From an uncultured Gammaproteobacteria bacterium (lineage in GTDB: Bacteria; Patescibacteriota; Microgenomatia; Levybacterales; GWA1-39-11), in contig CAZYWG010000006.1 of the NCBI GenBank assembly GCA_964651815.1, forward strand, positions 23,259 through 87,258: DNA of 64,000 nucleotides. Reading direction: 5' to 3'. The position numbers and the translations under genes were made by a program. Below, in pieces: positions 1-27,595 of the stretch. Position 1 is the stretch's first letter; each line of letters begins with the position of its first letter. The notes beneath the pieces are model-generated. The model was not told the DNA's origin. It saw only the letters and a program-made list of their open reading frames with translations, and did not search any database.

Positions 1-2
1 AA

Positions 3-623
3 AAGGCAAGTGAACAAGAAAAAAAAGAAGTTGAAAAGCTGACAGGCGGTCATGGCAAGCTGGCAAAGCTTTCATATGAGGCAATTCTAGCCGATCCCGG
101 TGAAAAAGATATTGAAAAACTATTACTTTCAAAGCCACAAATAAAAGGGGCGCTTTTTGAGATCTGGAATTATTTGACTCCTGAAGAACAAAACGATTTA
201 AGGGAAGGGTCAGACAATGAATTTCTTTCAAAAATGCATTTACTTGAAAACGGAAAACTCACAATTCCGCTGTTTGCGTCATATATAAAACTTCTCCCGC
301 AAACTGAATCCACTAGTAAATTAAAATATGATGCTGAAAGAAATGAAATACTAAAGGGTTCAGAAACTTTGACTGACAGATTAACACCTTCCGAATTCAG
401 GCTCTTACGTCATCTCATGGTAAACCAAGACCGCGTCTCTGAAAAAGATGAAATTATACAAGCGGTTTGGAGTGATTCAAAAACGCGCGAAGGCGTGACA
501 GATCAAGCACTTGACCAGATTATTTACAGGCTAAGGAAGAAAATTGAAGATGACCCAAATAACCCACACTTTATTCAAACAATAAAAGGGCGCGGGTATA
601 AATTTAACGGTCAGTCTTCTTGA
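3..623 (+). CDS. 5'-truncated winged-helix (OmpR/PhoB trans_reg_C-like) DNA-binding protein. The frame is open to the window edge.
   Basis: C-terminal segment LTPSEFRLLRHLMVNQDRVSEKDEIIQAVW...RLRKKIE...IQTIKGRGYKF matches the OmpR-type wHTH consensus. No stop codon upstream in frame back to nt 3. The N-terminal part is not a recognisable receiver domain. Confidence 0.6.
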   Translation, partial: KASEQEKKEVEKLTGGHGKLAKLSYEAILADPGEKDIEKLLLSKPQIKGALFEIWNYLTPEEQNDLREGSDNEFLSKMHLLENGKLTIPLFASYIKLLPQTESTSKLKYDAERNEILKGSETLTDRLTPSEFRLLRHLMVNQDRVSEKDEIIQAVWSDSKTREGVTDQALDQIIYRLRKKIEDDPNNPHFIQTIKGRGYKFNGQSS

Positions 624-657: not shown

Positions 658-2100
658 GTGAGATTTGTAAAAAAGGCTGTTAACTTATTTTTTGTTTGCT
701 TGATTTTCTTTATCCTCCTCGGATTTTTCACAAAACAGACTACGGCGGCTGATCCATGCGCTGATCCAAATATTCCATGCGCAGGCACCCAAACTTCTAA
801 TAATTCTGCTCCGGACACATCAAGCGATACGTTTGGTCAGTCTGATGTTACGCCGGATTTTACAACTAATCCTGACGGGAAAAATATATCAGATGGAACT
901 CAACAAGTAAAAGTCACATTCAATAATCTTACAGGGAAAGAAAATGCTATATGCACAGGTAATAACTCATGTTTTGTAGGACTAGGTTCTAGAGATAACT
1001 CCGGAACCGTTGGTTTTCCTACGCTTTTTTTTAATGATGATGAACTAATTACAGATTTTCAAGGCATCAAGGTTCAGGACCTCGGCATCACTCTACCAAT
1101 TTGCGGAAATGATAATGAGGTCCAAATTTGTAAAGATCCCGGTAATCATTATTTTATAGGTGGCCAAATGTATACTTTTAGCATTGGGATTAAAAAAGAC
1201 AATTTATATTACCCCCAAAAATTTGCATTCTTTTATGTTCCGCGCTCTTTCCCCACACCGCATATTGACCCTACTGACGATTTGACGGTAAAAAGTACAA
1301 TTAAAGTAACACTTGACCCTCCAAAAGATGATCATGGTAATAGCGCAATAAGAGGCGGTGGTGGGACAGGCGTTTGGCTCCGTAATAATTACAAAATAAG
1401 CATGATTGGGGGAGGAGCAATTAGCAAAGGTGGATGCGTTGGATGGTTTAACAAAGGTGACACCAACACAATCGGCGTAACATTTAGCAATCTGACTAGG
1501 GGTAGATATACACTTTCTATAAGTGAACAAACAAGCGATTCAGACAGTAATCCTTGGAAGAAAAAAGACAAAGACAGTAGTATAGTACAAGCACAGGACG
1601 ATCCCAACAATCACGATTGTGAAGGTGGCTTTCCTTATTGGCGTGCAGTATGTGAAGTAACGCCAGACCATCCGGGCGGCAAATGCAGTAAGCCGGTGAG
1701 AGACCCAAGCGGACAAGAATATAAAGATTTTCTAAATGACCTTGACGCACTCAACAGTATTGCACCCGGAATGAAATACCCTTGTGGAGGTGGTAAAAAC
1801 ACCGTAAACAACTCATGTCCGTCAGTTGATACTGCAATTGGGACAATTCAAGTAACACCTCAGGGGTTTATCACTGACATTTTCACATTTGTCTTAACAA
1901 TTGCAGGATTTGGTTCAATGATAATCATAATTTACGCTGGTTACACATTTATGGTATCACGAGGTGATAAAGAAAAAATTGCAGGAGCGCGCGAGACTCT
2001 TACGTCTGCAATTGTTGGATTGTTGTTTATAATATTATCAATTGTTATACTTGAAATTATTGGGGTAGATATTTTGAGAATCCCCGGAATCGGACGATAA
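658..2100 (+). CDS. Secreted Cys-rich extracellular domain fused to a C-terminal TrbC/VirB2-like pilin hairpin (adhesin-pilin fusion)
   Basis: GTG start. Signal peptide MRFVKKAVNLFFVCLIFFILLGFF..TTA/ADP. About 400 aa of Cys/Gly/Asn/Thr-rich region. C-terminus is two hydrophobic helices flanking SRGDKEKIAGARETLTSAIVGLLFI, the same motif as the five other pilin-like ORFs. A ttgact-18-tatcat promoter abuts the start. Confidence 0.55.
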   Translation: MRFVKKAVNLFFVCLIFFILLGFFTKQTTAADPCADPNIPCAGTQTSNNSAPDTSSDTFGQSDVTPDFTTNPDGKNISDGTQQVKVTFNNLTGKENAICTGNNSCFVGLGSRDNSGTVGFPTLFFNDDELITDFQGIKVQDLGITLPICGNDNEVQICKDPGNHYFIGGQMYTFSIGIKKDNLYYPQKFAFFYVPRSFPTPHIDPTDDLTVKSTIKVTLDPPKDDHGNSAIRGGGGTGVWLRNNYKISMIGGGAISKGGCVGWFNKGDTNTIGVTFSNLTRGRYTLSISEQTSDSDSNPWKKKDKDSSIVQAQDDPNNHDCEGGFPYWRAVCEVTPDHPGGKCSKPVRDPSGQEYKDFLNDLDALNSIAPGMKYPCGGGKNTVNNSCPSVDTAIGTIQVTPQGFITDIFTFVLTIAGFGSMIIIIYAGYTFMVSRGDKEKIAGARETLTSAIVGLLFIILSIVILEIIGVDILRIPGIGR

Positions 2101-2101
2101 A

Positions 2102-2428
2102 ATGAAATTATTAGCGCTTACTGTCAACAACATGAAAGGCACGCCTGAACAAATTGTTCCTCCTACAGGCATTCCAACCGGTATCTCATTAGGATCACTT
2201 GCGACAGGATTTATTGATGTTGTTATGGTCATAGGCGTTCTACTCTCTCTTGCCTATCTTGTCTATGGAGGAGTTTTCTGGATTCAATCTAAAGGTAATA
2301 AAGAAACGCTTGATAAAGCAAGAAGGATAATTCTTTACGCAATTATTGGGCTTATTGTCATGTCTGTTGCGCTTGTTGCAGTAAACCTTGTGACATCAGC
2401 AATTGGCGTAACAACTCTAATTCACTAA
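2102..2428 (+). CDS. TrbC/VirB2-like pilin family protein
   Basis: 108 aa with two hydrophobic helices separated by SKGNKETLDKARRIILYAIIGLIV. Immediately downstream of 658..2100. Confidence 0.55.
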   Translation: MKLLALTVNNMKGTPEQIVPPTGIPTGISLGSLATGFIDVVMVIGVLLSLAYLVYGGVFWIQSKGNKETLDKARRIILYAIIGLIVMSVALVAVNLVTSAIGVTTLIH

Positions 2429-2437
2429 ATTTCAAAA

Positions 2438-3916
2438 TTATTTTTTGTAAATTACCGCAGTTTTATCTTCAAAGATCTTCGCCCAATGGTCATATTCTAG
2501 TCGGCTTATAAATCTCGCTTTATAGTGGTTTGAATTTTGCAATAAAGATATATCAACTCCAAATACATCAATGCTAAGTGGTTTTGAATTTTTGTTTTGC
2601 CACAAAACATAATGGACATTATATTTTTTAAAAAATTTTTCGTAGCTGGCCGCGCCGCTTACTATACTCGCATAATCTTTGAATGCTGAATCGCTTTCTG
2701 AAGCGCTCGCGCGCCACTGCCAGGAAGGCATCCTTCCATCAATAAATACACGTTTTTCAGGGAGCTTCCACAATAAATATCCTCCCCAATTATAAACTGA
2801 AAAAATTTCTCCATTTATATTTTGCTTTTTTAAAAATGAAACAGCACTTTTTGGATAATATTTTTTTTCGGAAAGATCTGAATGTAAACCAATAGAATAT
2901 GTTTTACTCAAAAAAACGGCAAGTGCGTATAGCACAAAGATTAAAACGGCTTTTGAAAAACGCGCGAGCATGGCTTCATTTTTTTTAACTTCTTCCCGGA
3001 AAAATTCAAAAAAAGGCGGAACAATTATTAGTGTCGCAACTATAAAATACGGTAAGTGCCTAACGCTTGATATAACAAGTAAAAGAAGTGCCAGATAAAT
3101 AACGAGTGCTTGAAGCTTCAACTTTTTCCTATATCTAAAAATTAGAACAAAAGACAAGGCTAAAAGTATAAAAAAGGAAAGGTCAAAAAAGAAAACCCCC
3201 GGGAGCCATTCAATTATTTCCCACCTTAATGCTGAATCTGTAATTGATGAAAGTACTTCTCCCCAGAGTCGCGCGCCGTATGGATTTATAAATGTGGCAA
3301 GAATTGATCCCCCCAAAACTAAAAAATCATATCGGTCTACTCTTTTTTGGATAATTCTCAAAACAATAAATATTGATAGTAGATAGATTGCTACCGCAAA
3401 ACTTCCATGAAGATTGGCCCAAATTAAAATTAATACTGGAATTGTAATTTTCCATTTCTTCCACAGTTTTTCATTCAACAAAACTGTAAGCAAGACAGCG
3501 GCCAAAAACCAGGAAATAACCTGTATTCTTAATCCTGAAAATGAAAGAAGAATTGATGCAGCCAGAAGAAAAAATGAGGCATAATACACTTTAAATTGTT
3601 TTTTAAGTGAAAATGCAATTGCACCTATTGGGAAAGCCGCAAAGAAGAAAGAAAGAAGAAGCGGATGTATTTTGTAAAGAAAGTATATTACTACATCCGC
3701 AAGCCACTCATGATCTATGGCCGGAAAAGAAAGCATAGTATAGGAAAAAGTGTCTTTATATTGAAAACCGTGTTTTAAAGTGAGTTCTCCGAGTTTTAAG
3801 TGCCATCCAAAATCAGGATCTAGTGCAATTGTGTTGTGGATAAAAAAAACTATAAAAGAAGCAAAAACTAAACCCAAAAAAATTACTAAAGCTATCCTCC
3901 TACTATTCAAATTCAT
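2438..3916 (-). CDS. Polytopic membrane protein (about 10-12 TM) with a roughly 130-aa C-terminal soluble domain. GT-C glycosyltransferase-like architecture; function uncertain.
   Basis: Hydropathy pattern of the translation. N-terminal loop DPDFGWHLKLGE. Soluble C-terminal domain VYNWGGYLLWKLPEKRVFIDGRMPSWQW. Embedded among the pilin genes. Confidence 0.45.
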   Translation of the reverse strand: MNLNSRRIALVIFLGLVFASFIVFFIHNTIALDPDFGWHLKLGELTLKHGFQYKDTFSYTMLSFPAIDHEWLADVVIYFLYKIHPLLLSFFFAAFPIGAIAFSLKKQFKVYYASFFLLAASILLSFSGLRIQVISWFLAAVLLTVLLNEKLWKKWKITIPVLILIWANLHGSFAVAIYLLSIFIVLRIIQKRVDRYDFLVLGGSILATFINPYGARLWGEVLSSITDSALRWEIIEWLPGVFFFDLSFFILLALSFVLIFRYRKKLKLQALVIYLALLLLVISSVRHLPYFIVATLIIVPPFFEFFREEVKKNEAMLARFSKAVLIFVLYALAVFLSKTYSIGLHSDLSEKKYYPKSAVSFLKKQNINGEIFSVYNWGGYLLWKLPEKRVFIDGRMPSWQWRASASESDSAFKDYASIVSGAASYEKFFKKYNVHYVLWQNKNSKPLSIDVFGVDISLLQNSNHYKARFISRLEYDHWAKIFEDKTAVIYKK

Positions 3917-4017
3917 ATGAGCTTTATTCTACAAAAATTGTTTATGCTTTGTCTTGGTGTATTTTGCAAACTCGGAAGCACTTGACAAACTATTTCAAAC
4001 GTGCTGTAATTAAAAAT

Positions 4018-4431
4018 GTGAAAAGAATTTCAAAGTATTTAGTTCTCCTTCTCCCCCTCTTGGGTTTTATAAATGTTCCTATAGTATCAGCTAATGTTTT
4101 GTTCTCAGGTGTTAATACTGGAAGAATAAGCAATAGAATTATAAGTCCAGATCAAAGCATTGGGTCAATCGTTTCATTCGCTGTTGCATTTATTGTAGTC
4201 CTCTCGTTTCTTCTTGCACTTATTTTTATTGTTATCGGAGCAGTCCAATGGATAACATCAGGTGGTGACAAACAAAAAGTGGCGGACGCACGAAACCATA
4301 TAATTTCTGCAATTATTGGACTTATAATTGTCGCGCTCTCTTTTGTCATTGTTAACATTGTTATAACGGCGCTTGGCCTTGGATCTCTCACAAACCTCAC
4401 TATCCCAACTCTTTCGGAATTTGGCCAATAA
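4018..4431 (+). CDS. TrbC/VirB2-like pilin family protein. The GTG start at 4018 is preferred over the ORF-track start at 3949.
   Basis: Signal peptide VKRISKYLVLLLPLLGFINVPIVSA, then two TM helices around SGGDKQKVADARNHIISAIIGLII. C-terminal tail ...TLSEFGQ. TTGACA(3983)-17-TGTAAT(4006) lies just upstream of the GTG, so the longer 3949 start would sit upstream of the promoter. Confidence 0.5.
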   Translation: MKRISKYLVLLLPLLGFINVPIVSANVLFSGVNTGRISNRIISPDQSIGSIVSFAVAFIVVLSFLLALIFIVIGAVQWITSGGDKQKVADARNHIISAIIGLIIVALSFVIVNIVITALGLGSLTNLTIPTLSEFGQ

Positions 4432-4474: not shown

Positions 4475-4798
4475 ATGAATGATTTTATTCCAACCTCTGA
4501 TTGGTCAAGCTGTTTGAGCAATGGGGACGTTGCCACTCTATCTTGTATTCCTATAGTTCTTCAAAATATTATTAATTTTCTTGTTCTTTTTGCAGGTATT
4601 GCGTGTGTTTTTATAATAATTTTTGCAGGTTTTAAATTCGTAACGTCAGAAGGAGACCCTGAAAAAGTTGCACTTGCAAGAAAAACCGCGATGTATGGAA
4701 TTGGAGGATTTTTATTGGTACTTGCGTCTTTTGTTCTTGTAACAATGATTTCTAAGTTTACGGGAGTCACCCAAATCGCACCAAAAAACATCCCTTAA
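4475..4798 (+). CDS. TrbC/VirB2-like pilin family protein
   Basis: Two TM helices around SEGDPEKVALARKTAMYGIGGFLLV. No classical cleavable signal peptide. A -10-like taaaat sits about 9 nt upstream of the ATG. Confidence 0.5.
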   Translation: MNDFIPTSDWSSCLSNGDVATLSCIPIVLQNIINFLVLFAGIACVFIIIFAGFKFVTSEGDPEKVALARKTAMYGIGGFLLVLASFVLVTMISKFTGVTQIAPKNIP

Positions 4799-5499
4799 TT
4801 TATCCTCCTGAGTAAAAACTTGGCTATTATAAAAATTACAGTATTCACGGCAACTGGAATTAAAAAAAGCAAAACTACTAGTTTTAATGCTCCAAGAATT
4901 CGATGATCAAAAATAACATGCGATATAGGAGTAATTAAGTCAACTTTTAGAAATTGCGCCATGAGTATTGCAATAAATGCTAAAAACGCAACTAACAAAA
5001 CTAAAAAGACGCTCCCCTCCATATCTTTTTTACTTGAAAACATTGTGTTGGTGATAAAAAAAACAATATAGATAACGCCGCCTGTTTTTAAAACATCAAA
5101 AAATGATGAAAAAATAATATCCGGGTGCAAAAAATTAAGGTAATAAAACAAAACACTAAAAATTATAATCATTCCTACCACGACAGGAGCCGCTCCAATT
5201 AAAAAACTCCTCACTATATCTGTTTTCCTTATCTCAACGCTCCCCATCCGAAAGTTGCCATGCTCTATTTTTGGTGAGATCTCCAAACCATAGGTTTTGA
5301 CAAATAAAGCTTCCGCAACAAGCATATGTGCAAGCTCATGAAGTACTACTCCGGGAAGGAATAAAATAAAAATGGGGATTGCTGCTCTATCACTCTTTTT
5401 GAAAAGTCTATATGAGAAAATAAAAAGCGCAGAAAAAATAAATTTTGAAGTTAAAAAAAGTATTAAGAACTCTGCCGCAAAAAGCGCCCAAAATATCAT
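4795..5499 (-). CDS. Integral membrane zinc metalloprotease-like protein (HExxH)
   Basis: Multi-TM protein with HELAHMLVAE (HExxH) at the end of an early TM segment. Last gene of the minus-strand operon with 5855..8956. Converges on the pilin genes with a 4-nt overlap. Confidence 0.45.
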   Translation of the reverse strand: MIFWALFAAEFLILFLTSKFIFSALFIFSYRLFKKSDRAAIPIFILFLPGVVLHELAHMLVAEALFVKTYGLEISPKIEHGNFRMGSVEIRKTDIVRSFLIGAAPVVVGMIIIFSVLFYYLNFLHPDIIFSSFFDVLKTGGVIYIVFFITNTMFSSKKDMEGSVFLVLLVAFLAFIAILMAQFLKVDLITPISHVIFDHRILGALKLVVLLFLIPVAVNTVIFIIAKFLLRRIN

Positions 5500-5854: not shown

Positions 5855-8800
5855 TTATAGCGCTTCTCCTTCGTCTTTAAATCTATCTATAACTGCTAAT
5901 AAAGCATTTTCCATTTCAGTTACCTTTACATCTCCTGTATCCATTTGATCTTTGAGAATATCTAAAAATGTTTCAAAATTCGGTGTTATGAGTGGGCTAA
6001 AGGGTGTTCCGAATAAAGGTTCATTCATGATCTCCATAAGCCTATCTGGCGTAATAATGGAGCTTACTTTTTTGAAATATTCTTCTCGATCATTTCTATC
6101 CTTATATTTAAGCATTACATCAAGAAATTCATAGTATCCTCTCGGAGGTTTTTCCGGCGGATCCCTAAAGGTAACATCGCGTTCCGAAGGAGTGTAAGTT
6201 GTATAATCCGGATCCGTAGGATTAATTTTTGTATTTTTTGTAAATTCGTCCTTTTTTTCAAAAATCTCGTATCTTCTATCCATTATTCTGTCGAAGTTCT
6301 TTAAAAGATCGCTAGTTACTTCGATTTGCTTTATCTCACCACTCAAATCTACCTTGCCAATTTCATCCTCTTGTATCTTTATCTTACCGTCAAATTCTTT
6401 TTCTAATCTCTCTCCGGCTTGCGCCCTTGAATCAAACTTGATCATTGCAAACTTTACCGCATCATTAATTTCAGAATCTGAAGGAACGGGAGGCGGTGGA
6501 GTCCCAAGCACTGGCGCGCGCTTATCAAGCATTGCCTTAATCTCCGCAAAAGACATAGTTCTAAGCTCTTCGTCAGTTAAAGCCCAAGTTGGCTCATCGG
6601 TTAATTTTTTGAAATTACTTTCTAGATCTGCTTTTCTTGGAGTAGAACTTTCAATCCTCCGCCCTCTTGCCTCAATCATGGCATTAATTACCTTGTTGCG
6701 GATATCATCTTTATCGTTCTGTTCTTTTTTCCAACCCGCCGGAAGAACATTAACTAGATCCATTATTTGATCTATATCATTTGTTCTAAGCTGTGCGTCT
6801 GATAATCCAATTGCCCGTAGTTCTCTGTATGCCTTGGTGTAGCCTTCGGTGGTTGTCTTTATTTCTGTGAATCTTGAACCTTCCTCTTTGAGGTTGACTC
6901 TTTGCTCATCAATTTTATCAAGTACCTCTTGAAGTCTGTTTTTCTCTGTTAAGACTTTGTTTACATCTTCCTGAATTTTAGCAGCTTTTCGGGCGACCTC
7001 GCTGTCAATATTTTCTCTTGCTAATCGAAGTCTTTCACTAAAATGTTCCGCTTCTTCATCAGTTCGCTTTATAACACGACCTGCGATTTCCTCGTACTGT
7101 TCTTCTTGCCATGTTTCTAACTCTAAGTTTCGTTGTTTAGTAGATTTGATTCTATCCCCATTTATAATTACCTCTGTGCCAATTCCATTTATTACGTCGT
7201 CTAATCCTGACATTGCCCCTTCAATACTCGTAAACCGACCGGCAAAATTTCTTACGACCTCTTTTGTAGCTCTGGTACGTATTTCCTCTATCGCTTTTCT
7301 CCCCTTATTGTATTCTTCGATTGTTGTCTTCCCAGCATCTATAGACCCTCTATCTCTTTTATATAGATCTCTATTTGTTTCAAAGTCTTTAACTCTTGCT
7401 TTATAAACAGTCGCTTCTTCTCCCTTACTCTTATCTCTTGCTTTTATTTTCTCTTCCCATCTTGATGCTCCCGGCAAAGATGTTTTCTTCTGCTCAATAA
7501 TATACTTTTTAAGCTGGTCCATTGCCACGTCTAATCTCGCTTTTTCAAATCTCTCTCTGTTGCCATGGTAATCAAGCGTTGCTAGACCTGTTAGAAAAGC
7601 GGGATTGTTAATCCATGAATTGGTGGCATCATCAAACACTTTACGCGTCCGCCCTAATGTGTCTCGTATTCCGTCTTCGTCTGCATTAAATTTTTCGGCT
7701 ATTTCTTCCATGTATCTAACTGCTGTTTTTTCCGGATAGCCTTTCCTCCCATCAGAATTGTAAAGAAATCCGATTGCAAGAGCATCTGCTCCGGCCCTAT
7801 CCGCGTGAATATCCTTCATGAATTCCATCCTTGCCTTAATTCTTGCGTCAATATCGTGTCTAAGTTGTTTTTGATTAGCTTCACTCGCACCGGGCGAAGG
7901 ATTAAGAACGTTAATTCCCGACATTAGTCTTACGTATTTAATGCGATCTGGGCTTGATTTAATATATTCAAGTGCTTTTTTTGATTCATGTGAATCAGGT
8001 TTTTTATAATCTCTTGAAACACCTTTTCCAACTGCAAGTGCAATTGCCTCAGCTGCTGTCGGAGCAAAACCTAACGTCGCGGCAGCTAAAGCAGGCGCCA
8101 TACCAAGAGTTGCAACTCCTAATCCTCCTGCTAACGCTGCTCCTGCTCCGACAAGTAGTACTCCTGTCTGAAGTCTATTTTGGTCATTAAATCTTGATAG
8201 ATATGGATAAGGTATGCTTAATGGACCAATTTTCTTTGAACCTATTGCCGGAACAATAGGAACATTGGGCAATCTGATTGATCCTAATATTGCTACCTCA
8301 CCTTTTCTACCATCATAAGAAGCAGTAGGTTCAGAAAGAAATTCCTGGGCTTTTCTAGCTGGATATCCAAGAGGTCCTTCTCTCATTCCAAGTGGCGTTT
8401 GATCTCTCGGCTCTGTGCCGATATCTTCAGTTGGCCCAGGATTAGTTTCCGGTATTAACCCTAGTGCAGACGAATCAACTTCCGTCTGACGCCCCATCAT
8501 AATGTCAGTAATCACGTAACCCCTAGGACTGTTTAGAAACTCGTCAACACTTTTCTCAAGGTCATTTATATCTGCGTCCTCAAATTCAACCTTAAGGGCA
8601 CCAGTATCTGTTTTTCCGGCAAGTATCCCGTAAACTTCACGGTCTAAATCATCCATTAATTCAGGGGCGTCTTTTTTTACTTTTGACAAGCGGTCCTTAA
8701 TGTGGTCTGTCATGAAGCGTCTATATTTATCCCGAGTGTCCCGGCTGAGATCCGTCCAAGGGTTCCGTTCTTTTCTTTGCCCACCACTTCTATCTCTCAT

Positions 8801-10511: not shown

Positions 10512-11738
10512 ATGGAAAATCATCCTATACCACAAGACGTTACAGGCTTTAAATTTAAGCTGATTGGTAGCATGACTGTCAAACAGTTTTTATATCTATT
10601 AGGGTTTGGTATTTTGAGTATGATCTTTCTTATTTTCCACATGAATTTATTTATAAAAGTCCCTATCATGACCGTACTTGGGTGCATTGGAATATTTCTT
10701 GCATTTATTCCAATTGAAGGGCGTCCAGCGGACATTATGATAATGAATTTTGCAAAAGCAATTCCTTCTGAAAACAGGTACATTTTTAAAAAACGCGGCG
10801 TCAATTTGGCGAACTATGAAGCTTTCAAAATAATTGTCAAAAAGCCAGTTCCAGCGTCAGCAGCACCTGGGACGCAACCGTCTACACCAAAAAGTGTTTC
10901 TGATGATAAACGGGCAATTTTGATTTCGCGTCTTCGCAACTCTTCTTTCAGGCCTGATGATTCGGAAATTAAACAACTTAACAACATTAAAGCTATTTTT
11001 GATACAGATAGTAGTGCTACCCCACAAACGCAAATTTTTGTAAGTGAGCAAAAAAATAAACCAATGGTAGCAATACACGCCGACGAACCAAAAGTTGAAA
11101 TAACCAATGCTGTCTCCGCAGCGGCGCCAATTATACTTTCCTCTCCCGTGCCACAGGTAGCTGTGCATGAAATTAAGCCGCCCGAAGAAAAAAAAGCTGA
11201 TATGCCGGCAGAAAATCCGTCACTCCAAGCGGCAAAACCCGCTGCAAGCGAACAACCAGCGCAGCAAGAAGCGCCAAGACAAGAAATTCCACAGCCTCAA
11301 ATTAAACTTTCTGACAATGAAGAAAAAACACACTCTACCCCTCCCCCCGTGGCTATTGGCCAAGTATCTGCGCCTAATCTTGCCGGAGGATTCCCCACCC
11401 TTCCCGATGTTGGAAATGTAGTTCTTGGAATGGTTCGTGACGCTCGCGGCCGTACACTACCAAACATTTTGGTTGAGGTGGTGGACGACAACAATATTCC
11501 AGTGCGCGCTTTTAAAACAAACGCTTTAGGACAATTTGCTTCTGCTACCCCACTACCTGATGGCGTTTACAAAATACATTTTGAAGACCCGCAGAAAAAT
11601 CAGGAATTTGAAATTGTTGACATCAACCTTAGTGGCGAAATTTTTCAACCCATAGAAGCAGTTTCGGTTGACGCCCGAGAAAAATTAAGGCGCGAGCTTT
11701 TTGGCACTCAACCCGCAGCGCCAAGCTCAGTAGTATAA
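10512..11738 (+). CDS. PrgI/VirB3-like two-TM membrane protein with a long Pro-rich linker and a C-terminal prealbumin/carboxypeptidase-regulatory-like beta-sandwich domain
   Basis: N-terminus FKFKLIGSMTVKQFLYLLGFGILSMIFLIF...VPIMTVLGCIGIFLAFIPIEG resembles the small VirB3/PrgI component that precedes VirB4 genes. C-terminus GNVVLGMVRDARGRTLPNILVEVVDDNNIPVRAFKTNALGQFASATPLPDGVYKIHFE resembles CarboxypepD_reg-like folds. Confidence 0.45.
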   Translation: MENHPIPQDVTGFKFKLIGSMTVKQFLYLLGFGILSMIFLIFHMNLFIKVPIMTVLGCIGIFLAFIPIEGRPADIMIMNFAKAIPSENRYIFKKRGVNLANYEAFKIIVKKPVPASAAPGTQPSTPKSVSDDKRAILISRLRNSSFRPDDSEIKQLNNIKAIFDTDSSATPQTQIFVSEQKNKPMVAIHADEPKVEITNAVSAAAPIILSSPVPQVAVHEIKPPEEKKADMPAENPSLQAAKPAASEQPAQQEAPRQEIPQPQIKLSDNEEKTHSTPPPVAIGQVSAPNLAGGFPTLPDVGNVVLGMVRDARGRTLPNILVEVVDDNNIPVRAFKTNALGQFASATPLPDGVYKIHFEDPQKNQEFEIVDINLSGEIFQPIEAVSVDAREKLRRELFGTQPAAPSSVV

Positions 11739-11746
11739 AATAAATT

Positions 11747-12388
11747 ATGGCAAAAAAAGTTCATTCAACAACTCAAGACTTTACAGAAATAGTTGACATA
11801 TCAGACGACGTTGTTTTTTTTAGGGGAGGGAGCGCATGTATGATAGCCGAGGCGTCTTCAGTTAATTTTTTCCTTCTTTCAACTGATGAACAAAACGCAA
11901 GAATCTACGGATACATGGCTCTCCTAAATTCTTTGTCGTCATATCTCCAGATATTAATTGTTTCACGTCGTGTTGACCTTGGAAATTACTTAAAAATCAT
12001 TGACGAAAAAATTTCAAATGTTAAAAACCCTAAGATTTCAGAACAACTTGTTCTCTACCGCGATTTTATAAAAGATCTAATTAAGGGCGAAGGATTGCTT
12101 GATAAAAAAATCTATATTGTGGTCCCTTTTTCCCAACTTGAACTCGGTCCGTCATCTATGCCACAGCAAACAACGCAACAAGCAAGTAAACCCCTCTCTC
12201 TAAATGAGAGGATTAAATCCGGATTAATATCTAAAAGAAATAATGTCATAACTCAGGTTGAACGCATGGGGCTTACCGCAAAGCCACTTGGGACAAACGA
12301 ACTAATCAAGCTTTTTTACGAATTGTTTAACCAGGAATTTGTGACTCTGGACTTCAATTCAAGTGATATTAAGAATGTGATTATATAA
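11747..12388 (+). CDS. VirB4 N-terminal-like module encoded as a separate ORF (213 aa)
   Basis: DISDDVVFFRGGSACMIAEASSVNFFLLSTDEQNARIYGYMALLNSLSSYLQILIVSRRVDLGNYL resembles the first conserved region of TraC/VirB4-family N-termini. Same reading frame as the downstream ATPase ORF, separated from it by TAA/TAA/TAG stops. Confidence 0.4.
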   Translation: MAKKVHSTTQDFTEIVDISDDVVFFRGGSACMIAEASSVNFFLLSTDEQNARIYGYMALLNSLSSYLQILIVSRRVDLGNYLKIIDEKISNVKNPKISEQLVLYRDFIKDLIKGEGLLDKKIYIVVPFSQLELGPSSMPQQTTQQASKPLSLNERIKSGLISKRNNVITQVERMGLTAKPLGTNELIKLFYELFNQEFVTLDFNSSDIKNVII

Positions 12389-12403
12389 ACACGAAGCACT
12401 AGA

Positions 12404-12480
12404 TTCGAAACCCGAAACAAGTTTTAAAAATTAAAAAATTAGAATTTGTTTCGAATTTCGATATTCGAATTTCGAATTTT
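12404..12480. repeat. Imperfect inverted repeat plus tandem tcgaattt units between the two VirB4 ORFs
   Basis: ttcgaaacccgaaacaa (12404-12420) pairs with ttgtttcgaatttcgat (12446-12462) at 14 of 17 positions, around a 25-nt A/T loop. Followed by tcgaattt at 12451, 12465 and 12473. Confidence 0.5.
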
Positions 12481-12481
12481 T

Positions 12482-14782
12482 ATGTTGGGCTTTGGGAAAA
12501 AAACAAAACAAATTCAAAATGAAGCACCTCAACAGGTATTGAGTGCCGCGGGCGAACCTACTGTGGCGCCACAAGTCCAACCAACAATTGTTGTAAAGGC
12601 CGGGACAAAAGGCAAAAAAGCAGCTGGACAAAGCTCGCATCCGCAAAACGTGCAAAGTAAAGGGTATGCTGCTCTTTCTCAAGGGGCTGTTTCTGTAGTT
12701 GACATTATTTCCCCGTCGTCAGTTGAAGTTGATTTTAAAAATATTCGCGTTGGAAATAAATTTTTCAGGACTTTTTTTGTTGTTGATTATCCACGGCAAG
12801 TATCTCCCAACTGGCTTTCAATACTCATCGACTACAAAGAGACTATGAACATTTCAATGTTCTCATACCCCGTTGAGAGCAAAGACGTATTAACAAATTT
12901 AAGAAGAAAAATTTCTGAGATGGAAGCAACGCTTCAATCAGACGCTGAGCAAGGACTTGAACCGGACCCTAAGACTAGCGCCGGGCTGGAAGATGCAATC
13001 GCTTTGCGAGAAGAACTGGCACGTGGGCTTGAGCGATTTTTCCAATTCGGTTTATATATCACTTTGGCCGCTGAAACTGTTGAAGAACTTGACTCAAAAA
13101 CCAAAGAGCTAACTTCTCTTCTTGCGTCAAACCTTTTACTTATTAAACCCGCAACTCTCCAAATGGAAGACGGATTCAAAACTACGTTGCCAGGCGGCGT
13201 TGACAAACTTTTTATAACTCGCAACATGGATACAACTTCTCTTGCTTCAACTTTTCCTTTCACGTCTTATGAAATATCACACCCTAATGGAATCCTGTAT
13301 GGAGTCAACACAATAAATAATTCACTTGCGATTGTGGACCGTTTTTCTTTTGAAAATGCAAATGAGGTAGTCTTTGGAAAGTCAGGTGCCGGAAAATCTT
13401 TCCTGGTAAAACTTGAAATACTTCGCCAAATGATGTTTGACGCGGAGATTTTGATTATCGACCCAGAAGATGAATATAGAGCTCTTTGCCACGCGCTTGA
13501 CGGCGAATACATTAATTTTTCAAAGGACTCTGACATTAAAATTAACCCATTTGCGCTAATTTCTGAAGACATGACAGACGCGCAACTTGGAATAAAAATC
13601 TTATCACTTCACGGGCTTCTCAAAACCATGCTTGGGGAGATGACGCCAACTCAAGAAGCAATTCTCGATAGGTCTCTTGTATTATGTTATAAGCAAAAAG
13701 GGATAACTCCGGACCCCGCAACTTACAGACAAGAACCACCAATTCTTGAAGATCTTTACAAAACTCTTCTTAACATGGAAGAACCCGAAGCAAAAGATCT
13801 TTCATTCAGGCTCGAAAAATATGTGAAAGGTGGTTTCTCAGGTCTTTTTAATCAACAAACAAATTATGATGTTAAAAACCAACTAACTGTTTTTTCAATA
13901 AAACAACTTGAAGACGCGCTCCGTCCAATTGCTATGCATGTAATTTTGGATTTTATCTGGAACCGCGTCAGGACAAAGCTTAAAAAAAGAATACTGGTAG
14001 TTGATGAGGCGTGGTATCTAATGCAACACCCTGATTCTGCAAGTTTTTTGCAAGGAATTGCCAAACGGGCAAGAAAATATTTCCTTGGAGTAACTACTCT
14101 TACTCAAGATATTGAAGACTTTCTCAATAACGATTATGGAAAATCCATTTTATCTAATTCCTCAGTTCAAATTCTTTTAAAACAGAATTCTTCAGAAGTT
14201 GAAACCCTGGCAAAAGCGCTATTTTTATCGGAAGGAGAAAAACAATTTCTAGTGACGGCACAAGTTGGAGAAGGGCTTTTGTTTGCCGGGCAAAATCACA
14301 TAACCGCTCAGTTTGTGGCATCAAATTCAGAATATGAACTAATTACTTCAAAGCCACAAGATATATTAAGAAATGAACAGGACGCGGAAAATATTCAGGC
14401 GGCACAATTGGCTTCCGCGCAAGCTAATCCGCCTCAACCCACAGAACAAACACAAGCGCCGCCACCTCCACCAGAACAACCAATGCAACCTCAACAGCCT
14501 ACGGCAATACCAGTGGTACCTACCCAAAGCGTGCCGACACAAGATCCTGAAAACATCACAGTTGTTCCACAGCAAATCCAGACACCAGTACAACCTGCTG
14601 TAACACAGCAACCAATCACACAAATACCTACAGTGAGTGTACCCCAGCCAGGTACCATCCCGGCAGCACCAATTGCTTCTTTCAATCAAGCTCTCCCTAC
14701 AGCGCCCCCTGTAGCGCCACAACCCCCGATTGTTCCTACGGAAAACGTTCAGCCCCCTACAAATCCCACTGGGAGCGCATAA
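12482..14782 (+). CDS. virB4: VirB4/TrbE/CagE-family type IV secretion ATPase (ATG at 12482 preferred; ORF-track TTG at 12446)
   Basis: N-terminal region IISPSSVEVDFKNIRVGNKFFRTFFVVDYPRQVSPNWLSILIDY..MNISMFSYP. Walker A FGKSGAGKSF (nt 13375-13398). Walker B ILVVDEAWYLMQ. About 140-aa Pro/Gln-rich C-terminal extension. Confidence 0.8.
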   Translation: MLGFGKKTKQIQNEAPQQVLSAAGEPTVAPQVQPTIVVKAGTKGKKAAGQSSHPQNVQSKGYAALSQGAVSVVDIISPSSVEVDFKNIRVGNKFFRTFFVVDYPRQVSPNWLSILIDYKETMNISMFSYPVESKDVLTNLRRKISEMEATLQSDAEQGLEPDPKTSAGLEDAIALREELARGLERFFQFGLYITLAAETVEELDSKTKELTSLLASNLLLIKPATLQMEDGFKTTLPGGVDKLFITRNMDTTSLASTFPFTSYEISHPNGILYGVNTINNSLAIVDRFSFENANEVVFGKSGAGKSFLVKLEILRQMMFDAEILIIDPEDEYRALCHALDGEYINFSKDSDIKINPFALISEDMTDAQLGIKILSLHGLLKTMLGEMTPTQEAILDRSLVLCYKQKGITPDPATYRQEPPILEDLYKTLLNMEEPEAKDLSFRLEKYVKGGFSGLFNQQTNYDVKNQLTVFSIKQLEDALRPIAMHVILDFIWNRVRTKLKKRILVVDEAWYLMQHPDSASFLQGIAKRARKYFLGVTTLTQDIEDFLNNDYGKSILSNSSVQILLKQNSSEVETLAKALFLSEGEKQFLVTAQVGEGLLFAGQNHITAQFVASNSEYELITSKPQDILRNEQDAENIQAAQLASAQANPPQPTEQTQAPPPPPEQPMQPQQPTAIPVVPTQSVPTQDPENITVVPQQIQTPVQPAVTQQPITQIPTVSVPQPGTIPAAPIASFNQALPTAPPVAPQPPIVPTENVQPPTNPTGSA

Positions 14783-26132: not shown

Positions 26133-26189
26133 GATTTGGATTATACTACTCTAGAAGTTAAGTTCAAATGCCTCTGCTATAATCTGACT

Positions 26190-26666
26190 ATGGTAATTTT
26201 GGGGATTGATCCGGGGATTGGCAGAACTGGTTGGGGAATAATTGACAAACAGGGTTCAAAAACAAAATCGTTAGGCTATGGATGCATTGAAACTGAAGCA
26301 GGACTTCCTTTAGAAAGACGCCTCCAAATAATTTGCGAAGAACTCGTTAAGATAATAAAAAAACACAAACCACATATGATGGGTATCGAAGATCTTTTCT
26401 TCAATACGAATGCCAAAACTGCCTTAATTGTTGGACAAGCTCGGGGAGCAATTATTGTTACGGCAGTGGGTCTTGGTTTGGAAATATTTTCCTACACTCC
26501 CCTTCAGGTTAAGACAGCAGTGACGGGATACGGACGAGCAGAAAAAGCGCAAATGGGGAAAATGGTAAAGATGCTTTTAAATTTGCCGGAAATACCAAAA
26601 CCTGATGATACGTGTGACGCGCTAGCCTGCGCGCTAGCCTGCGCGTTTTCTAGGAAGAACATTTAG
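26190..26666 (+). CDS. ruvC: Crossover junction endodeoxyribonuclease RuvC
   Basis: MVILGIDPGIGRTGWGII start. A TATAAT box at 26178-26183 lies 6 nt before the ATG (leaderless?). The 3' end carries a perfect 12-bp tandem duplication gcgctagcctgc x2 (26619-26642), giving ALACALAC. Confidence 0.85.
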   Translation: MVILGIDPGIGRTGWGIIDKQGSKTKSLGYGCIETEAGLPLERRLQIICEELVKIIKKHKPHMMGIEDLFFNTNAKTALIVGQARGAIIVTAVGLGLEIFSYTPLQVKTAVTGYGRAEKAQMGKMVKMLLNLPEIPKPDDTCDALACALACAFSRKNI

Positions 26667-27061
26667 GGCTTAAGCAGGGGTATAAAATTTGCATCTGACT
26701 CGGGTCCAAGCCCCAGAGCTGAGAGGATTACATTTACCATAACAAAAAAAGCGGCAGTAGCCAAAAATCCCACAATACCAAAAATAAGCTTCTGTTTTGC
26801 ACTGCTTTGTTTCACTCTGTCTCCTCTCGATAAAACCAGCTGAAAAATTCCCATTAAAATTAGTAATATCGATGAGAGAAATCCAAAAACAATGATCGCT
26901 TCCAGAAAAAAGTAAATTAGATAGTCGTAACCTAAGGACGTATCCGGCATAGTTATTTGGTCAGGAGGTGTTGCAACGTAGTCAGTCGATTTTAAAACGT
27001 CAGCATGGGCTGGCAAAGCAAAAAGCAGGAATAAAGGGAAAGTTAATAGAGCCTTTTTCAT
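26663..27061 (-). CDS. TrbC/VirB2-like pilin family protein
   Basis: Signal peptide MKKALLTFPLFLLFALPAHA. Two TM helices around SRGDRVKQSSAKQKLIFGIVGFLA. Inserted between ruvC and ruvA on the opposite strand. Confidence 0.5.
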   Translation of the reverse strand: MKKALLTFPLFLLFALPAHADVLKSTDYVATPPDQITMPDTSLGYDYLIYFFLEAIIVFGFLSSILLILMGIFQLVLSRGDRVKQSSAKQKLIFGIVGFLATAAFFVMVNVILSALGLGPESDANFIPLLKP

Positions 27062-27063
27062 AA

Positions 27064-27534
27064 TTATTGCCCAAACTCACTGAGGTTTGGAACACAGAGG
27101 CTGAGAGGTGAAGCTCCAATCCCAAACGCAGTATTCACAACATTAACTAATATAAAAATAACAAATATCAACCCGAGGGTAATTAAACCTGCAAAAATAC
27201 GATTTTTTGCGCTCCGCGATTTTTGTTTATCTTTTCTGAATTTTATCCACATGAAAACGCCAGTTAAAATAAAGACTAAAGATGAAAGAGAAATAGCCGT
27301 TGCAAACACCTCAAATAAAAGATTTAAAACAGTGTATGTGAGAGAATAGTGATATACATTACATGGTGAAGAATGGCCACTCATTAACAAAGACAATAGA
27401 GACATGAGATAGAGAGGCAAAGTGATTACGGGTGTTATTGTAAACATATTTGTTTTTTTCCAAAAAACAAAAACAATAACCATGGTCAACAAAGCAAGCA
27501 ACCCGATAATAACCGCGGAATTTAAAGTTTCCAT
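27064..27534 (-). CDS. TrbC/VirB2-like pilin family protein (extra N-terminal TM segments)
   Basis: C-terminal hairpin FRKDKQKSRSAKNRIFAGLITLGLI. Ends ...VPNLSEFGQ, the same tail as the 4018..4431 pilin. Confidence 0.5.
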   Translation of the reverse strand: METLNSAVIIGLLALLTMVIVFVFWKKTNMFTITPVITLPLYLMSLLSLLMSGHSSPCNVYHYSLTYTVLNLLFEVFATAISLSSLVFILTGVFMWIKFRKDKQKSRSAKNRIFAGLITLGLIFVIFILVNVVNTAFGIGASPLSLCVPNLSEFGQ

Positions 27535-27595
27535 AACTTAAGATTACCAGTATTAAATTTTGCAATCAAGACGCTGTGATATAATCTTTCTACTA

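Follow-up and report, generated by a model that had tools for sequence, protein, structure and literature searches.

A long modular PF18895-family pilin at the head of the T4SS pilin array in a Levybacteria-like patescibacterium

Gene content and synteny of the pilin locus

The window, meaning the whole 64-kb stretch of DNA that was analysed, carries a pilin array and a monoderm-type T4SS core close to dnaA (Table 1). The first gene of the array, here called the long pilin, is preceded by an in-frame stop codon at 640-642, and the GTG at 658 is the sole start that retains the signal peptide; a protein identical to the 480-aa product is present at NCBI. The original prediction had described this ORF as a fusion encoded by one gene, and so it proved: signal peptide, an ectodomain of ~370 aa and a C-terminal two-helix hairpin follow one another in one frame. 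Relatives are encoded in 110 species-level genomes, those with informative names being nearly all Candidatus Levybacteria, and the suggested check of related genomes for the fusion returned the same architecture in all 114 database homologs. Ectodomain-only homologs were absent, the hairpin being kept in all 114 matches. Full-length homologs from many independent assemblies are collinear with the long pilin at 30-47% identity, with signal peptide and hairpin at the same ends. These observations already refute an artefact, either a chance ORF or the fusion of two genes through faulty sequencing or assembly, whose probability we regard as negligible; the N-terminal region is not a separate, frameshifted gene.

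Table 1. Features of the long pilin gene and its surroundings in the window
Feature	Positions	Strand	Description and basis
Regulator, C-terminal part	1..623	+	OmpR-type winged helix (Trans_reg_C); cut by window start; directly upstream of long pilin in most loci
Long modular pilin gene	658..2100	+	480 aa, GTG start; first gene of pilin array
Sec signal peptide, aa 1-30	658..747	+	Hydropathy; helix 2-22 in model; signal peptidase I site predicted near TTA/A
Distal N-tail, aa 31-61	748..840	+	Low-complexity, disordered; C34 and C41; pLDDT <50 over 39-61
Beta-sandwich domain 1, aa 62-195	841..1242	+	Model strands 68-194; Cys pairs 99/105, 149/158; tandem FN3/Ig-like Foldseek matches
Beta-sandwich domain 2, aa 196-292	1243..1533	+	RNNYQ motif, invariant C260; model, Foldseek, alignment
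Variable linker, aa 293-320	1534..1617	+	pLDDT 57-61; 10% identity; gapped in half of homologs
Membrane-proximal Cys-rich alpha/beta module, aa 321-398	1618..1851	+	Best conserved ectodomain part
Pilin hairpin, aa 399-480	1852..2097	+	PF18895; AlphaFold2 helices
Hairpin parts	TM1 ~1858-1956; loop SRGDKEK 1957-1977; TM2 1978-2073; then tail IGVDILRIPGIGR	+	Hydropathy, model
Short pilin, array position 2	2102..2428	+	108 aa; starts 1 nt past long pilin stop codon
Polytopic membrane protein	2438..3916	-	492 aa, at least 8 TM segments; inside pilin array
Short pilin, array position 3	3949..4431	+	PF18895 40.7 bits, above gathering score; E=8e-9 vs long pilin hairpin
Short pilin, array position 4	4475..4798	+	107 aa; PF18895 35.6 bits, passes cut-off; E=2e-12 vs long pilin hairpin
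6-TM protein, HELAH (HExxH) motif	4795..5499	-	234 aa; flanks array; also after array in about 20 loci
T4SS core: PrgI/VirB3-like; TrsD-like; VirB4 ATPase	10512..14782 (10512-11738; 11747-12388; 12446-14782)	+	Pfam; NCBIfam TrsD
dnaN and dnaA	17829..20396	-	Origin-proximal setting of locus; agrees with published patescibacterial T4SS placement (PMC12102498)
Two more short pilin paralogs	26663..27534 (26663-27061; 27064-27534)	-	Away from T4SS locus, between ruvC and ruvA

Synteny was compared in 80 loci drawn from the 110 species genomes. The usual order is regulator, long pilin, pilins of ~113, ~136 and ~106 aa, PrgI, TrsD-like protein, VirB4, dnaN and dnaA, the long pilin nearly always standing first in a conserved four-pilin array. 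The regulator orthologs have a median length of 441 aa, with an N-terminal P-loop in the one inspected. The 492-aa polytopic protein inside the array matched no family in Pfam or NCBIfam and occurs at the same position in five loci (L001, L015, L016, L020 and L070). The HELAH protein likewise had no Pfam or NCBIfam match; its motif makes it a possible membrane metalloprotease. The T4SS core genes lie 8-12 kb downstream of the long pilin, in a synteny seen in more than 40 loci, and the PrgI-like protein and an 840-aa T4SS protein of the locus also carry Ig-like (CarboxypepD_reg) domains. A VirB6-like platform could not be recognised in the window, and the Pfam scan of locus proteins brought up no VirB5 homolog.

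Five short pilin paralogs are present in the window. When the last 95 aa of the long pilin were compared by phmmer with the 406 window ORFs, they were recovered at E=2e-12, 8e-9, 1e-6, 2e-6 and 0.013, the next match being at E=0.87. For the paralog in position 3, the true start is likely further downstream, giving a ~135-aa protein with a signal peptide. The alignment proposed earlier as a check gave hairpins that correspond to that of the long pilin in both helices as well as the loop, with 20-35% identity, and together with the Pfam and phmmer results it bears out the claim that the long pilin's C-terminus is of the same pilin family as the five short proteins. The motif said to be shared by all of them survives in a degenerate version, S-x-G-D/N-K/P-x-K ... 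A-R/K ... I-x-x-A/G-I-I/V-G-L; the literal string SRGDKEKIAGARETLTSAIVGLLFI is not common to the paralogs.

Between species, hairpins in the same array position are 58, 40, 50 and 45% identical, the position-1 value being inflated by a genome scan whose patterns were taken from the position-1 hairpin, against 35-44% between positions within one locus; each position can thus be considered an orthologous group. In 54 of 64 arrays, the position-1 protein is 250 aa or longer. The architecture is therefore the rule for this position in Levybacteria, and its earlier description as unusual is justified relative to the searched literature and to classical VirB2 pilins. A few position-1 orthologs, with a total length of 136-154 aa, are almost devoid of the ectodomain, so the hairpin should have a role independent of its cargo.

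The C-terminal hairpin and the predicted ectodomain

Hydrophobic helices were located at about residues 401-433 and 441-472, on either side of the SRGDKEK loop; in the AlphaFold2 model they span 401-433 and 438-472, with pLDDT of about 85-95. Residues 401-466 matched Pfam family PF18895 (T4SS_pilin) with E=1.2e-4 and 22.5 bits. This is under the gathering score of 26.6, which counts against a pilin reading. Scores of 32-39 bits were obtained for relatives with hairpins 46-59% identical to the query; the family was matched by 50 of 51 full-length homologs (best E=2e-10), and a precomputed match exists for 89 of the 114 homologs. Since homologs and paralogs that do pass the cut-off match the hairpin of the long pilin, the latter can be assigned by transitivity to PF18895 on the basis of sequence.

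The label 'VirB2-like' derives from the names of the Pfam and NCBIfam families and from weak TrbC matches in two homologs (E=1.7e-4 and 8.5e-3), one of them also a PF18895 match. The NCBIfam model of the Mbov_0395 pilin-like proteins of Mycoplasma ICEs (NF045849) gave sub-threshold matches for the long pilin (E=1e-4) and for three short array pilins. PF04956 (VirB2/TrbC) did not match the long pilin, Foldseek matched the hairpin model to generic helical hairpins only (E>0.8), no VirB2 structure being among them, and a PDB sequence-profile search with the six hairpins returned nothing relevant. At 480 aa with a ~370-aa ectodomain, the long pilin lies outside the usual definition of small pilins (about 50-150 aa, no added domain). 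From the upstream signal peptide and ectodomain, both hairpin termini are predicted to be outside and the basic loop inside. The 'RGD' of the SRGDKEK loop was considered as an integrin-type motif and rejected: it is located in a predicted cytoplasmic/lumenal loop and belongs to the S-x-G-D motif seen throughout the family.

The N-terminus of the long pilin, MRFVKKAVNLFFVCLIFFILLGFFTKQTTAA, is built like a classical Sec signal peptide, and canonical A-x-A sites are present in homologs, in agreement with the cleavable signal peptide of the original prediction. A motif search of the long pilin revealed no lipobox, LPXTG or prepilin motif (G/F-x-x-x-E). The N-terminal part had been called rich in Cys, Gly, Asn and Thr; the composition of residues 31-400 agrees (G 11.4%, D 9.7%, T 8.9%, N 8.1%, S 7.6%, P 7.0%, C 3.2%), with 12 Cys in the mature part. 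In the AlphaFold2 model, two beta-sandwiches of Ig/FN3-like fold are followed by a small membrane-proximal module rich in Cys and then by the hairpin. The linker (residues 293-320) is the place where homologs carry long Gly-rich insertions. The proximal module is marked by the motifs CxGGFxYY ... DPxGxEY ... PCG...C..(V/I)(D/N)TAIGxI, and a C...C..DTAIG stub persists even in the shortest position-1 pilins.

Among homologs, C149, C158, C260 and C387 are invariant, and C321 and C376 nearly so; C332 and C343 are present together in 29 of 30 sequences, and 45 of 51 homologs have an even number of Cys. The ectodomain has five or six conserved Cys pairs, among them C260/C321, which according to model and alignment joins sandwich 2 to the proximal module. 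Overall, the prediction that the N-terminal ~370 aa form a folded, secreted, disulfide-rich ectodomain is supported. Structure prediction and domain search, both recommended beforehand, gave a folded ectodomain with no named domain in Pfam or NCBIfam; in the 51 homologs searched with Pfam, Y_Y_Y was the sole ectodomain match (two members), and fn3 was matched in one distant relative. Foldseek searches of the full model against PDB and BFVD returned generic tandem FN3/Ig sandwiches (including cytokine receptors, fibronectin, transglutaminase barrels and phage FN3 proteins), with no specific homology to adhesins or receptor-binding proteins and no known adhesin or lectin site. A second model of residues 321-480 (pLDDT 82.6) found no PDB match for the proximal module below E=0.8.

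Classical VirB2, TrbC and TraA pilins arise by processing of longer precursors, and the long pilin could by analogy be a pro-protein, its ectodomain being cleaved off (for instance by the HExxH neighbor or signal peptidase) to leave a soluble factor or a mature short pilin, with the ectodomain serving as leader, chaperone or separate effector. The conserved C..(V/I)(D/N)TAIGxI stub before TM1, which is present in all position-1 pilins, cargo-less ones included, would suit such processing, as would the putative metalloprotease next to the array. However, many loci are without the HExxH gene, the matches invariably keep the hairpin, and a folded, multi-domain ectodomain with a predicted disulfide between sandwich 2 and the proximal module is not leader-like. 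We consider cleavage improbable.

Conservation of the hairpin and replacement of the ectodomain

Conservation of the long pilin declines with distance from the hairpin: mean identity among full-length homologs is 70% in the hairpin, 38% in the proximal module, 31% and 28% in the two sandwiches and 21% in the N-tail, the least conserved region of ordered length. The ectodomain is hypervariable, and close relatives often have another one in its place. Sixty-three ectodomains fell into about 28 unrelated groups; in the L071/L081 pair, VirB4 is 91% and the hairpin 95% identical, as against 27% for the ectodomain, and in the L053/L009 pair, with VirB4 87% identical, the ectodomains measure 61 and 348 aa. 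Both the falling conservation and the hypervariability fit an exposed, interaction-type role. As a separate observation, the gene was rejected as a target of a diversity-generating retroelement (DGR), neither a template nor a variable repeat of it being present in the window.

In the hairpin, on the contrary, small residues are invariant and both the loop and the tail are conserved. Passive membrane anchors usually conserve hydrophobicity only, and the constraint seen in the sequences, far beyond the need of such an anchor, argues for specific packing. This bears on the possibility that the long pilin is a surface protein which stays in the cytoplasmic membrane and never enters a filament, the hairpin being a mere C-terminal anchor, perhaps docked by the T4SS, and the ectodomain an adhesin, a cell-wall/S-layer spacer or a sensor. 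Such a protein would be consistent with the bulk of the ectodomain and with the occurrence of the PF18895 hairpin in many further multi-domain arrangements, among them tandem repeats and forms with cargo at the C-terminus, as expected of a general membrane module; the best 150 matches of a family-wide PF18895 search were mostly multi-hairpin proteins. Moreover, none of the patescibacterial T4SSs has been seen to form a pilus, and the polymerisation of PF18895 proteins has itself been inferred (PMC12857230). Against it stand the strong conservation of the hairpin and the fixed first place of the gene in an orthologous four-pilin array beside VirB3/VirB4 in about 80 genomes, and we judge a simple anchor rather unlikely.

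The orthology of the array positions could also be explained by a structural, non-adhesive function, in which the long pilin would be the base or collar of a heteromeric conduit built from the four pilins, with an Ig-like sheath through the producer's own cell wall or S-layer. Four ancient, orthologous paralogs do suggest fixed, distinct structural roles, and the PrgI-like and 840-aa proteins bear Ig-like domains as well. Yet a domain in contact with the own envelope should not be swapped between relatives whose VirB4 proteins are 85-91% identical, nor be dispensable in some species, and the drop in conservation toward the distal end is typical of outward-facing binding surfaces. This makes a purely structural subunit very improbable.

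Possible role and comparison with known secretion systems

The reading preferred here, to which we give about even chances, is that the long pilin is a modular VirB2-type (PF18895) pilin of a chromosomal monoderm-type T4SS in a Levybacteria-like patescibacterium, displaying a host-binding module on the pilus or channel. Pilus incorporation and adhesion are both inferred. After export and signal-peptide cleavage, the hairpin would reside in the membrane as in VirB2 pilins, its SRGDKEK loop facing the cytoplasm and its two termini the exterior. The VirB4-driven machine would then extract the long pilin, like the three short pilins, and build it into a pilus or channel. The termini face outward in all solved VirB2 pili, and the ectodomain would therefore project from the pilus surface. 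Most likely, the long pilin would be a minor subunit, since a load of ~40 kDa on every subunit is sterically implausible. An attractive site is the first-assembled distal layer, where it would substitute for the VirB5 tip, which is missing, and attach to the host cell; in that case, the rapid diversification of the ectodomain would follow host specificity.

VirB5 itself forms soluble helical pentamers and has no pilin hairpin. The long pilin, combining beta-sandwiches with such a hairpin, shows no sequence or fold relationship to it: neither Pfam nor NCBIfam gave a VirB5 match, and the top PDB matches of the model are FN3/Ig tandems. The possible equivalence with VirB5/TrwJ/TraC tip proteins is functional, as a minor, distal, target-contacting part assembled before the VirB2 shaft, the T4SS pilus growing beneath a pre-assembled tip (PMC12624023). 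In VirB2 pili, the termini are outside and the loop lines the lumen, and Gram-positive systems are without a detected VirB5-like tip (bioRxiv 10.64898/2025.12.18.695078).

The closest counterparts are the VirB2-like arrays of Southlakia epibionticum ML1 and Nanosynbacter TM7x (PMC10633639; PMC12102498), which share the PF18895 hairpin family and a monoderm-type T4SS locus with PrgI/VirB3, TrsD and VirB4 close to dnaA. Published patescibacterial arrays comprise 2-11 divergent pilin genes, especially in Microgenomatia. Those pilins are small and their variation has been read as recent amplification or antigenic variation, whereas here the first member has a folded ectodomain of ~370 aa and the four positions are stable orthologous groups across Levybacteria. 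The accounts of patescibacterial arrays in PMC10633639 and PMC12102498 make no mention of pilins with large ectodomains. PrgF(B2) of pCF10, Gram-positive VirB2-like proteins and Mbov_0395 (NF045849) also have two TM helices with a short charged loop, and genes of the PrgF(B2) type lie near VirB6, VirB3 and VirB4 of monoderm T4SS, just as the long pilin is accompanied by VirB3 and VirB4; these proteins differ in being 50-150 aa long with no extra domain. Because the survey of Gram-positive VirB2 proteins searched small proteins only (bioRxiv 10.64898/2025.12.18.695078), long fusions were missed by design.

Unlike Gram-positive adhesins of the PrgB type, which were not detected in Patescibacteria (PMC12102498), the long pilin is without LPXTG and adhesin Pfam domains. 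Its organisation resembles that of the modular type IV pilins PilB and PilC of Streptococcus sanguinis (PMC8179133; PMC9934059), where an adhesive module grafted on a conserved polymerisation module yields a minor pilin that sets the binding specificity of the filament. PilB and PilC belong to the unrelated type 4 filaments, with a class III signal peptide, an N-terminal alpha-1 helix and C-terminal cargo; the long pilin has a classical Sec signal peptide instead of a prepilin motif, a VirB2-type scaffold and N-terminal cargo. In the Trw T4SS of Bartonella, amplified TrwL (VirB2) and TrwJ (VirB5) variants are thought to broaden or set host-cell specificity (as cited in PMC12102498). There, variation arises from the copy number of small subunits; here it would come from a hypervariable ectodomain on one conserved subunit.

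Patescibacterial pilin arrays are already published, and a description of the long-pilin fusion class was not found in the literature searched. The T4SS with its pilin array is essential to the epibiotic growth of S. epibionticum ML1, the sole genetically tractable patescibacterium (PMC10633639), and surveys report no adhesins or VirB5-like tip in patescibacterial and other monoderm systems (PMC12102498; bioRxiv 10.64898/2025.12.18.695078). The long pilin is a concrete, testable candidate for the host-recognition element of an ultrasmall bacterium's T4SS. The expressed ectodomain could serve as a probe for the hosts of uncultured Levybacteria, and its sequence type could mark host range. More tentatively, and with some doubt on our part, Levybacteria and probably other Patescibacteria may build an essential appendage from four dedicated pilin paralogs, the first being a modular VirB2 pilin with interchangeable binding domains that would nucleate the filament, sit at its tip, replace VirB5 and set the host cell for attachment and feeding.

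By the current definition, VirB2-type pilins are small two-helix proteins; the long pilin widens this design space, and searches limited to proteins of 50-150 aa miss its whole class. If the proposed role is true, this would be the first known adhesin-bearing pilin on a VirB2 scaffold and, together with the tandem 'poly-pilins' of the PF18895 family, it would mean that T4SS pilins can be as modular as type IV pilins.

Architecture of the long pilin and its hairpin relatives

The gene of the long pilin is preceded by an in-frame stop at 640-642, and only the GTG start at 658 retains the N-terminal Sec-type signal peptide, MRFVKKAVNLFFVCLIFFILLGFFTKQTTAA. Residues 31-400 are dominated by Gly (11.4%), Asp (9.7%), Thr (8.9%), Asn (8.1%), Ser (7.6%) and Pro (7.0%) and contain 12 Cys, followed by two strongly hydrophobic helices (~401-433 and ~441-472) joined by the loop SRGDKEK. 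The Pfam match to PF18895 (T4SS_pilin) covers residues 401-466 (E=1.2e-4; 22.5 bits, below the gathering score of 26.6). Composition, hydrophobicity, Pfam and the structural model thus bore out the signal peptide, Cys-rich ectodomain and C-terminal two-helix segment of the original prediction.

The AlphaFold2 model (51-sequence alignment; mean pLDDT 79.5, pTM 0.67) resolved the regions listed in the table, homologs having long Gly-rich insertions in the low-confidence linker. Since Foldseek searches of PDB and BFVD returned solely tandem FN3/Ig-like sandwiches (E from ~3e-5 to 1e-3) and no known adhesin or lectin, the ectodomain is, as modeled, a generic Ig-like stalk. A second model of residues 321-480 (110 sequences, pLDDT 82.6) had no significant PDB neighbor, so the proximal module is without a match among the solved structures searched; the hairpin fold is too simple to test VirB2 likeness at this level. 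Disulfide bonding of the ectodomain, suspected from its paired Cys, is supported by the homolog alignment: C149, C158, C260 and C387 never vary and C321 and C376 hardly do; C332 and C343 occur together in 29 of 30 sequences, and 45 of 51 homologs have an even number of Cys. The Sec-type signal peptide, the extracytoplasmic disulfide-rich Ig-like ectodomain and the pilin-family hairpin are demonstrated features of this protein.

Features of the pilin array, T4SS locus and paralog pair (window positions), and regions of the long pilin (residues, AlphaFold2)
Feature	Position	Strand	Remark
OmpR-type winged-helix regulator	1-623	+	cut by window start
Long pilin	658-2100	+	GTG start, 480 aa
Short paralog	2102-2428		phmmer E=1e-6
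Polytopic protein	2438-3916	-	492 aa, at least 8 TM segments
Short paralog	3949-4431		phmmer E=8e-9
Short paralog	4475-4798		phmmer E=2e-12
HExxH protein	4795-5499	-	234 aa, six TM segments
Large protein	5855-8956	-	1033 aa, one TM segment
Acidic protein	9007-10353	+	448 aa
PrgI/VirB3-like	10512-11738
TrsD-like	11747-12388
VirB4	12446-14782
dnaN + dnaA	17829-20396
ruvC	26136-26666
Short paralog	26663-27061	-	phmmer E=2e-6
Short paralog	27064-27534	-	phmmer E=0.013
ruvA/ruvB	27560-29202
Signal-peptide helix	residues 2-22
Disordered stretch	residues 25-61
Beta-sandwich 1	residues ~62-195
Beta-sandwich 2	residues ~196-292
Linker	residues 293-320		low confidence
Proximal module	residues 321-398		small, alpha/beta
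Hairpin	residues 401-472		two long helices

With the last 95 residues as query, phmmer searched all 406 stop-to-stop window ORFs and recovered the five predicted short paralogs, the next-best ORF having E=0.87; the weakest of the five has a separate PF18895 match (E=5e-4). All six hairpins align over both helices and the loop with 20-35% identity. They have a degenerate motif in common, although the literal string originally quoted is not shared. Two of the paralogs lie together between ruvC and ruvA/ruvB, at a distance of 20 kb from the T4SS locus.

Among 5.8 billion proteins searched, the long pilin had 114 matches, one of them an NCBI protein of identical sequence (P0001). Some 35 are homologous over the full length (430-560 aa, 30-47% identity), those with names being assigned to Candidatus Levybacteria or "Patescibacteria group" and one annotated as "pilin", and ~60 further proteins (266-670 aa) align with only the last ~20% of the query. 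By an HMM built from the six hairpins of the window, all 114 contain a hairpin, at the extreme C-terminus in nearly all; most also begin with a hydrophobic segment, and their Cys are usually even in number. A precomputed PF18895 match exists for 89 of the 114, and scanning matched 50 of the 51 aligned homologs, one also to TrbC/VirB2 (E=1.7e-4). By homology, the long pilin is a member of the PF18895 family. The predicted fusion architecture recurs across these homologs and the 110 species genomes that encode a relative; an artefactual reading is excluded, the long pilin being one conserved gene.

Pilin array and T4SS locus in Levybacteria

The window contains a monoderm-type T4SS adjoining the replication origin, a published arrangement for Patescibacteria (PMC12102498); their T4SS loci, origin-near placement and VirB2-like pilin arrays have been described, and the arrays are essential in Southlakia (PMC10633639, PMC12102498, PMC12857230). 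From the 110 genomes (one per species), 80 loci were retrieved and annotated with the window's own proteins. Informative genome titles were almost all Levybacteria or Levyibacteriota, with a few Daviesbacteria and Microgenomates. Many TPA_asm MAG records with this locus (loci L004-L083) are titled "uncultured Gammaproteobacteria bacterium", which look like placeholder mislabels, gene content and named relatives indicating Patescibacteria.

The locus order was strikingly constant: a Trans_reg_C regulator, the long pilin, pilins of ~113, ~136 and ~106 aa, PrgI, a TrsD-like protein, VirB4, dnaN and dnaA; a fixed place of the long pilin in the T4SS pilin array is thereby demonstrated. Some loci have the 492-aa polytopic protein between the second and third pilins, as in the window (the same in L001, L015, L016, L020 and L070), and others an HExxH membrane protein after the fourth. 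The polytopic protein, for which Pfam and NCBIfam gave no match, may be an enzyme that modifies pilins or else a VirB6-like platform of divergent sequence; none of the locus proteins was recognised as a VirB6. The HExxH protein (motif HELAH), with orthologs in the same place in ~20 loci, is possibly a membrane metalloprotease and a candidate for pilin processing. The protein with the C-terminal winged helix is likely the array's regulator, since most loci have it beside the long pilin. Its full-length orthologs are 441 aa at the median, with an N-terminal P-loop (GLPGTGKSN) in the 438-aa ortholog inspected, that of L006. The 1033-aa and 448-aa proteins between the array and PrgI, neither with a family match, are likely lineage-specific T4SS components; the former has counterparts in L006, L041 and L043 and similar-size unannotated genes in the same place in L001 and L002.

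A few loci have additional pilins or two long pilins, the latter in tandem (e.g., 678 + 468 aa, 503 + 432 aa) in L023, L045, L046, L058, L067, L071, L081 and L082. In L043, the Cys-rich cargo of the position-1 pilin is C-terminal, following the hairpin rather than preceding it. In L002, the genome of the closest full-length homolog, two genes with bAvd/23S_rRNA_IVP four-helix-bundle hits are interleaved in the array (11559-11927 and 13246-13611 of that locus; PF05635 on both, weak PF22296 on the first). They resemble accessory proteins of diversity-generating retroelements; neither an equivalent gene nor a template/variable repeat was found in the window.

In 64 arrays, the 75-aa hairpins at the same position are 58, 40, 50 and 45% identical between species for positions 1-4, the first value being biased upward since the locus patterns were taken from the position-1 hairpin, and 35-44% identical between positions inside one locus. 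Same-position identity between species thus exceeds that between positions of one genome, and the array is therefore an old set of four specialised paralogs, not a recent hypervariable amplification. While recent amplification or antigenic variation has been proposed for patescibacterial arrays, the position-by-position orthology over ~64 Levybacteria genomes suggests a heteromeric structure with fixed roles.

Hairpin constraint and ectodomain turnover

The hairpin is demonstrably under strong constraint, and the ectodomain turns over rapidly. Across homologs with the query's type of ectodomain, mean identity to the query drops with distance from the membrane, from 70% in the hairpin to 38% in the proximal module, 31% in sandwich 2, 28% in sandwich 1 and 21% in the N-tail, with 10% in the linker. 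The 63 position-1 ectodomains fall into ~28 unrelated groups (BLASTP, E<=1e-5), the query's having 28 members and the majority of the others being singletons. Genome pairs with closely similar machinery differ greatly in the ectodomain: L071 and L081 (VirB4 91%, hairpin 95%, ectodomain 27%), L028 and L029 (88, 95 and 48%), and L053 and L009 (VirB4 87%, ectodomains of 61 vs 348 aa). At 70-79% VirB4 identity, the ectodomain could be aligned in only a third of pairs.

The shortest position-1 pilins retain the signal peptide, a short Cys loop, the (V/I)(D/N)TAIG stub, the conserved hairpin and the IGVDILxIPGF tail; the ectodomain therefore behaves as exchangeable cargo inserted at the mature N-terminus. 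That the long pilin is a pro-protein, with cleavage close to the TAIG stub and the neighboring HExxH membrane protein as a possible protease, is an unlikely alternative reading. It is somewhat easier to conceive of a membrane-resident surface protein with the hairpin as its anchor, albeit still doubtful, as strong hairpin conservation argues against a passive anchor.

Possible role and reuse of the PF18895 hairpin

VirB2-type pilins reside in the membrane, their charged loop facing the cytoplasm, until the VirB4-powered machine extracts them; in the polymer, both termini point outward and the loop lines the lumen (bioRxiv 10.64898/2025.12.18.695078; PMC12624023). Because polymerised termini face outside, the N-terminal ectodomain would decorate the outer pilus surface. 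By rough estimate, ~40 kDa on each subunit of a five-start helix is implausible, and the long pilin would more likely be a minor subunit. The pilus grows at its base, beneath a pre-assembled tip (PMC12624023), and no VirB5 was found among the locus proteins scanned; given both, long pilins assembled first, as one layer, would come to lie at the distal tip. A host-binding determinant in an obligate epibiont would be expected to show such a conservation gradient and cargo swapping. A non-adhesive structural collar through the cell's own wall seems about as unlikely as the pro-protein reading. A patescibacterial T4SS pilus has yet to be visualised (PMC12857230). As for the tip adhesin or minor pilin with a VirB5-like role originally proposed, pilus incorporation, a tip location and adhesion are plausible predictions.

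A recent search limited to 50-150 aa, a cut-off which excludes the 480-aa long pilin by length, led to VirB2-like proteins being proposed for the majority of Gram-positive T4SS, and no tip protein was found (bioRxiv 10.64898/2025.12.18.695078); a survey of Patescibacteria detected no adhesins (PMC12102498). VirB2-like pilins are in practice small two-helix proteins, and the long pilin falls outside that description. The closest conceptual analogue is the "modular pilin" PilB of S. sanguinis type 4 pili (PMC8179133), but it belongs to an unrelated filament family whose defining prepilin motif is absent from the long pilin. The architecture had been called unusual: pilins with large ectodomains were not described in the literature searched, yet in sequence databases the fusion is ordinary for the Levybacteria-type lineage (of 64 arrays, 54 have a position-1 pilin of at least 250 aa, 6 one of 160-249 aa and 4 one of <160 aa).

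The six window hairpins, used as an HMM in an exhaustive search, gave 54,190 clusters (50% identity, E<=1e-3), headed by proteins with 2-17 tandem hairpins; in other listed PF18895 proteins, large Cys-rich domains come after the hairpins or alternate with them. Database proteins of these types, outside the window, are P0115, P0116, P0120, P0141 and P0223. In the tandem "poly-pilins", Gly/Ser/Thr linkers join the hairpins; some could be gene-calling read-through, but the inspected repeats are clean in-frame fusions. Neither type was found described. With such multi-hairpin and Cys-rich fusions, the PF18895 hairpin is a widely reused module, and the window's fusion is one conserved, lineage-wide instance of it.
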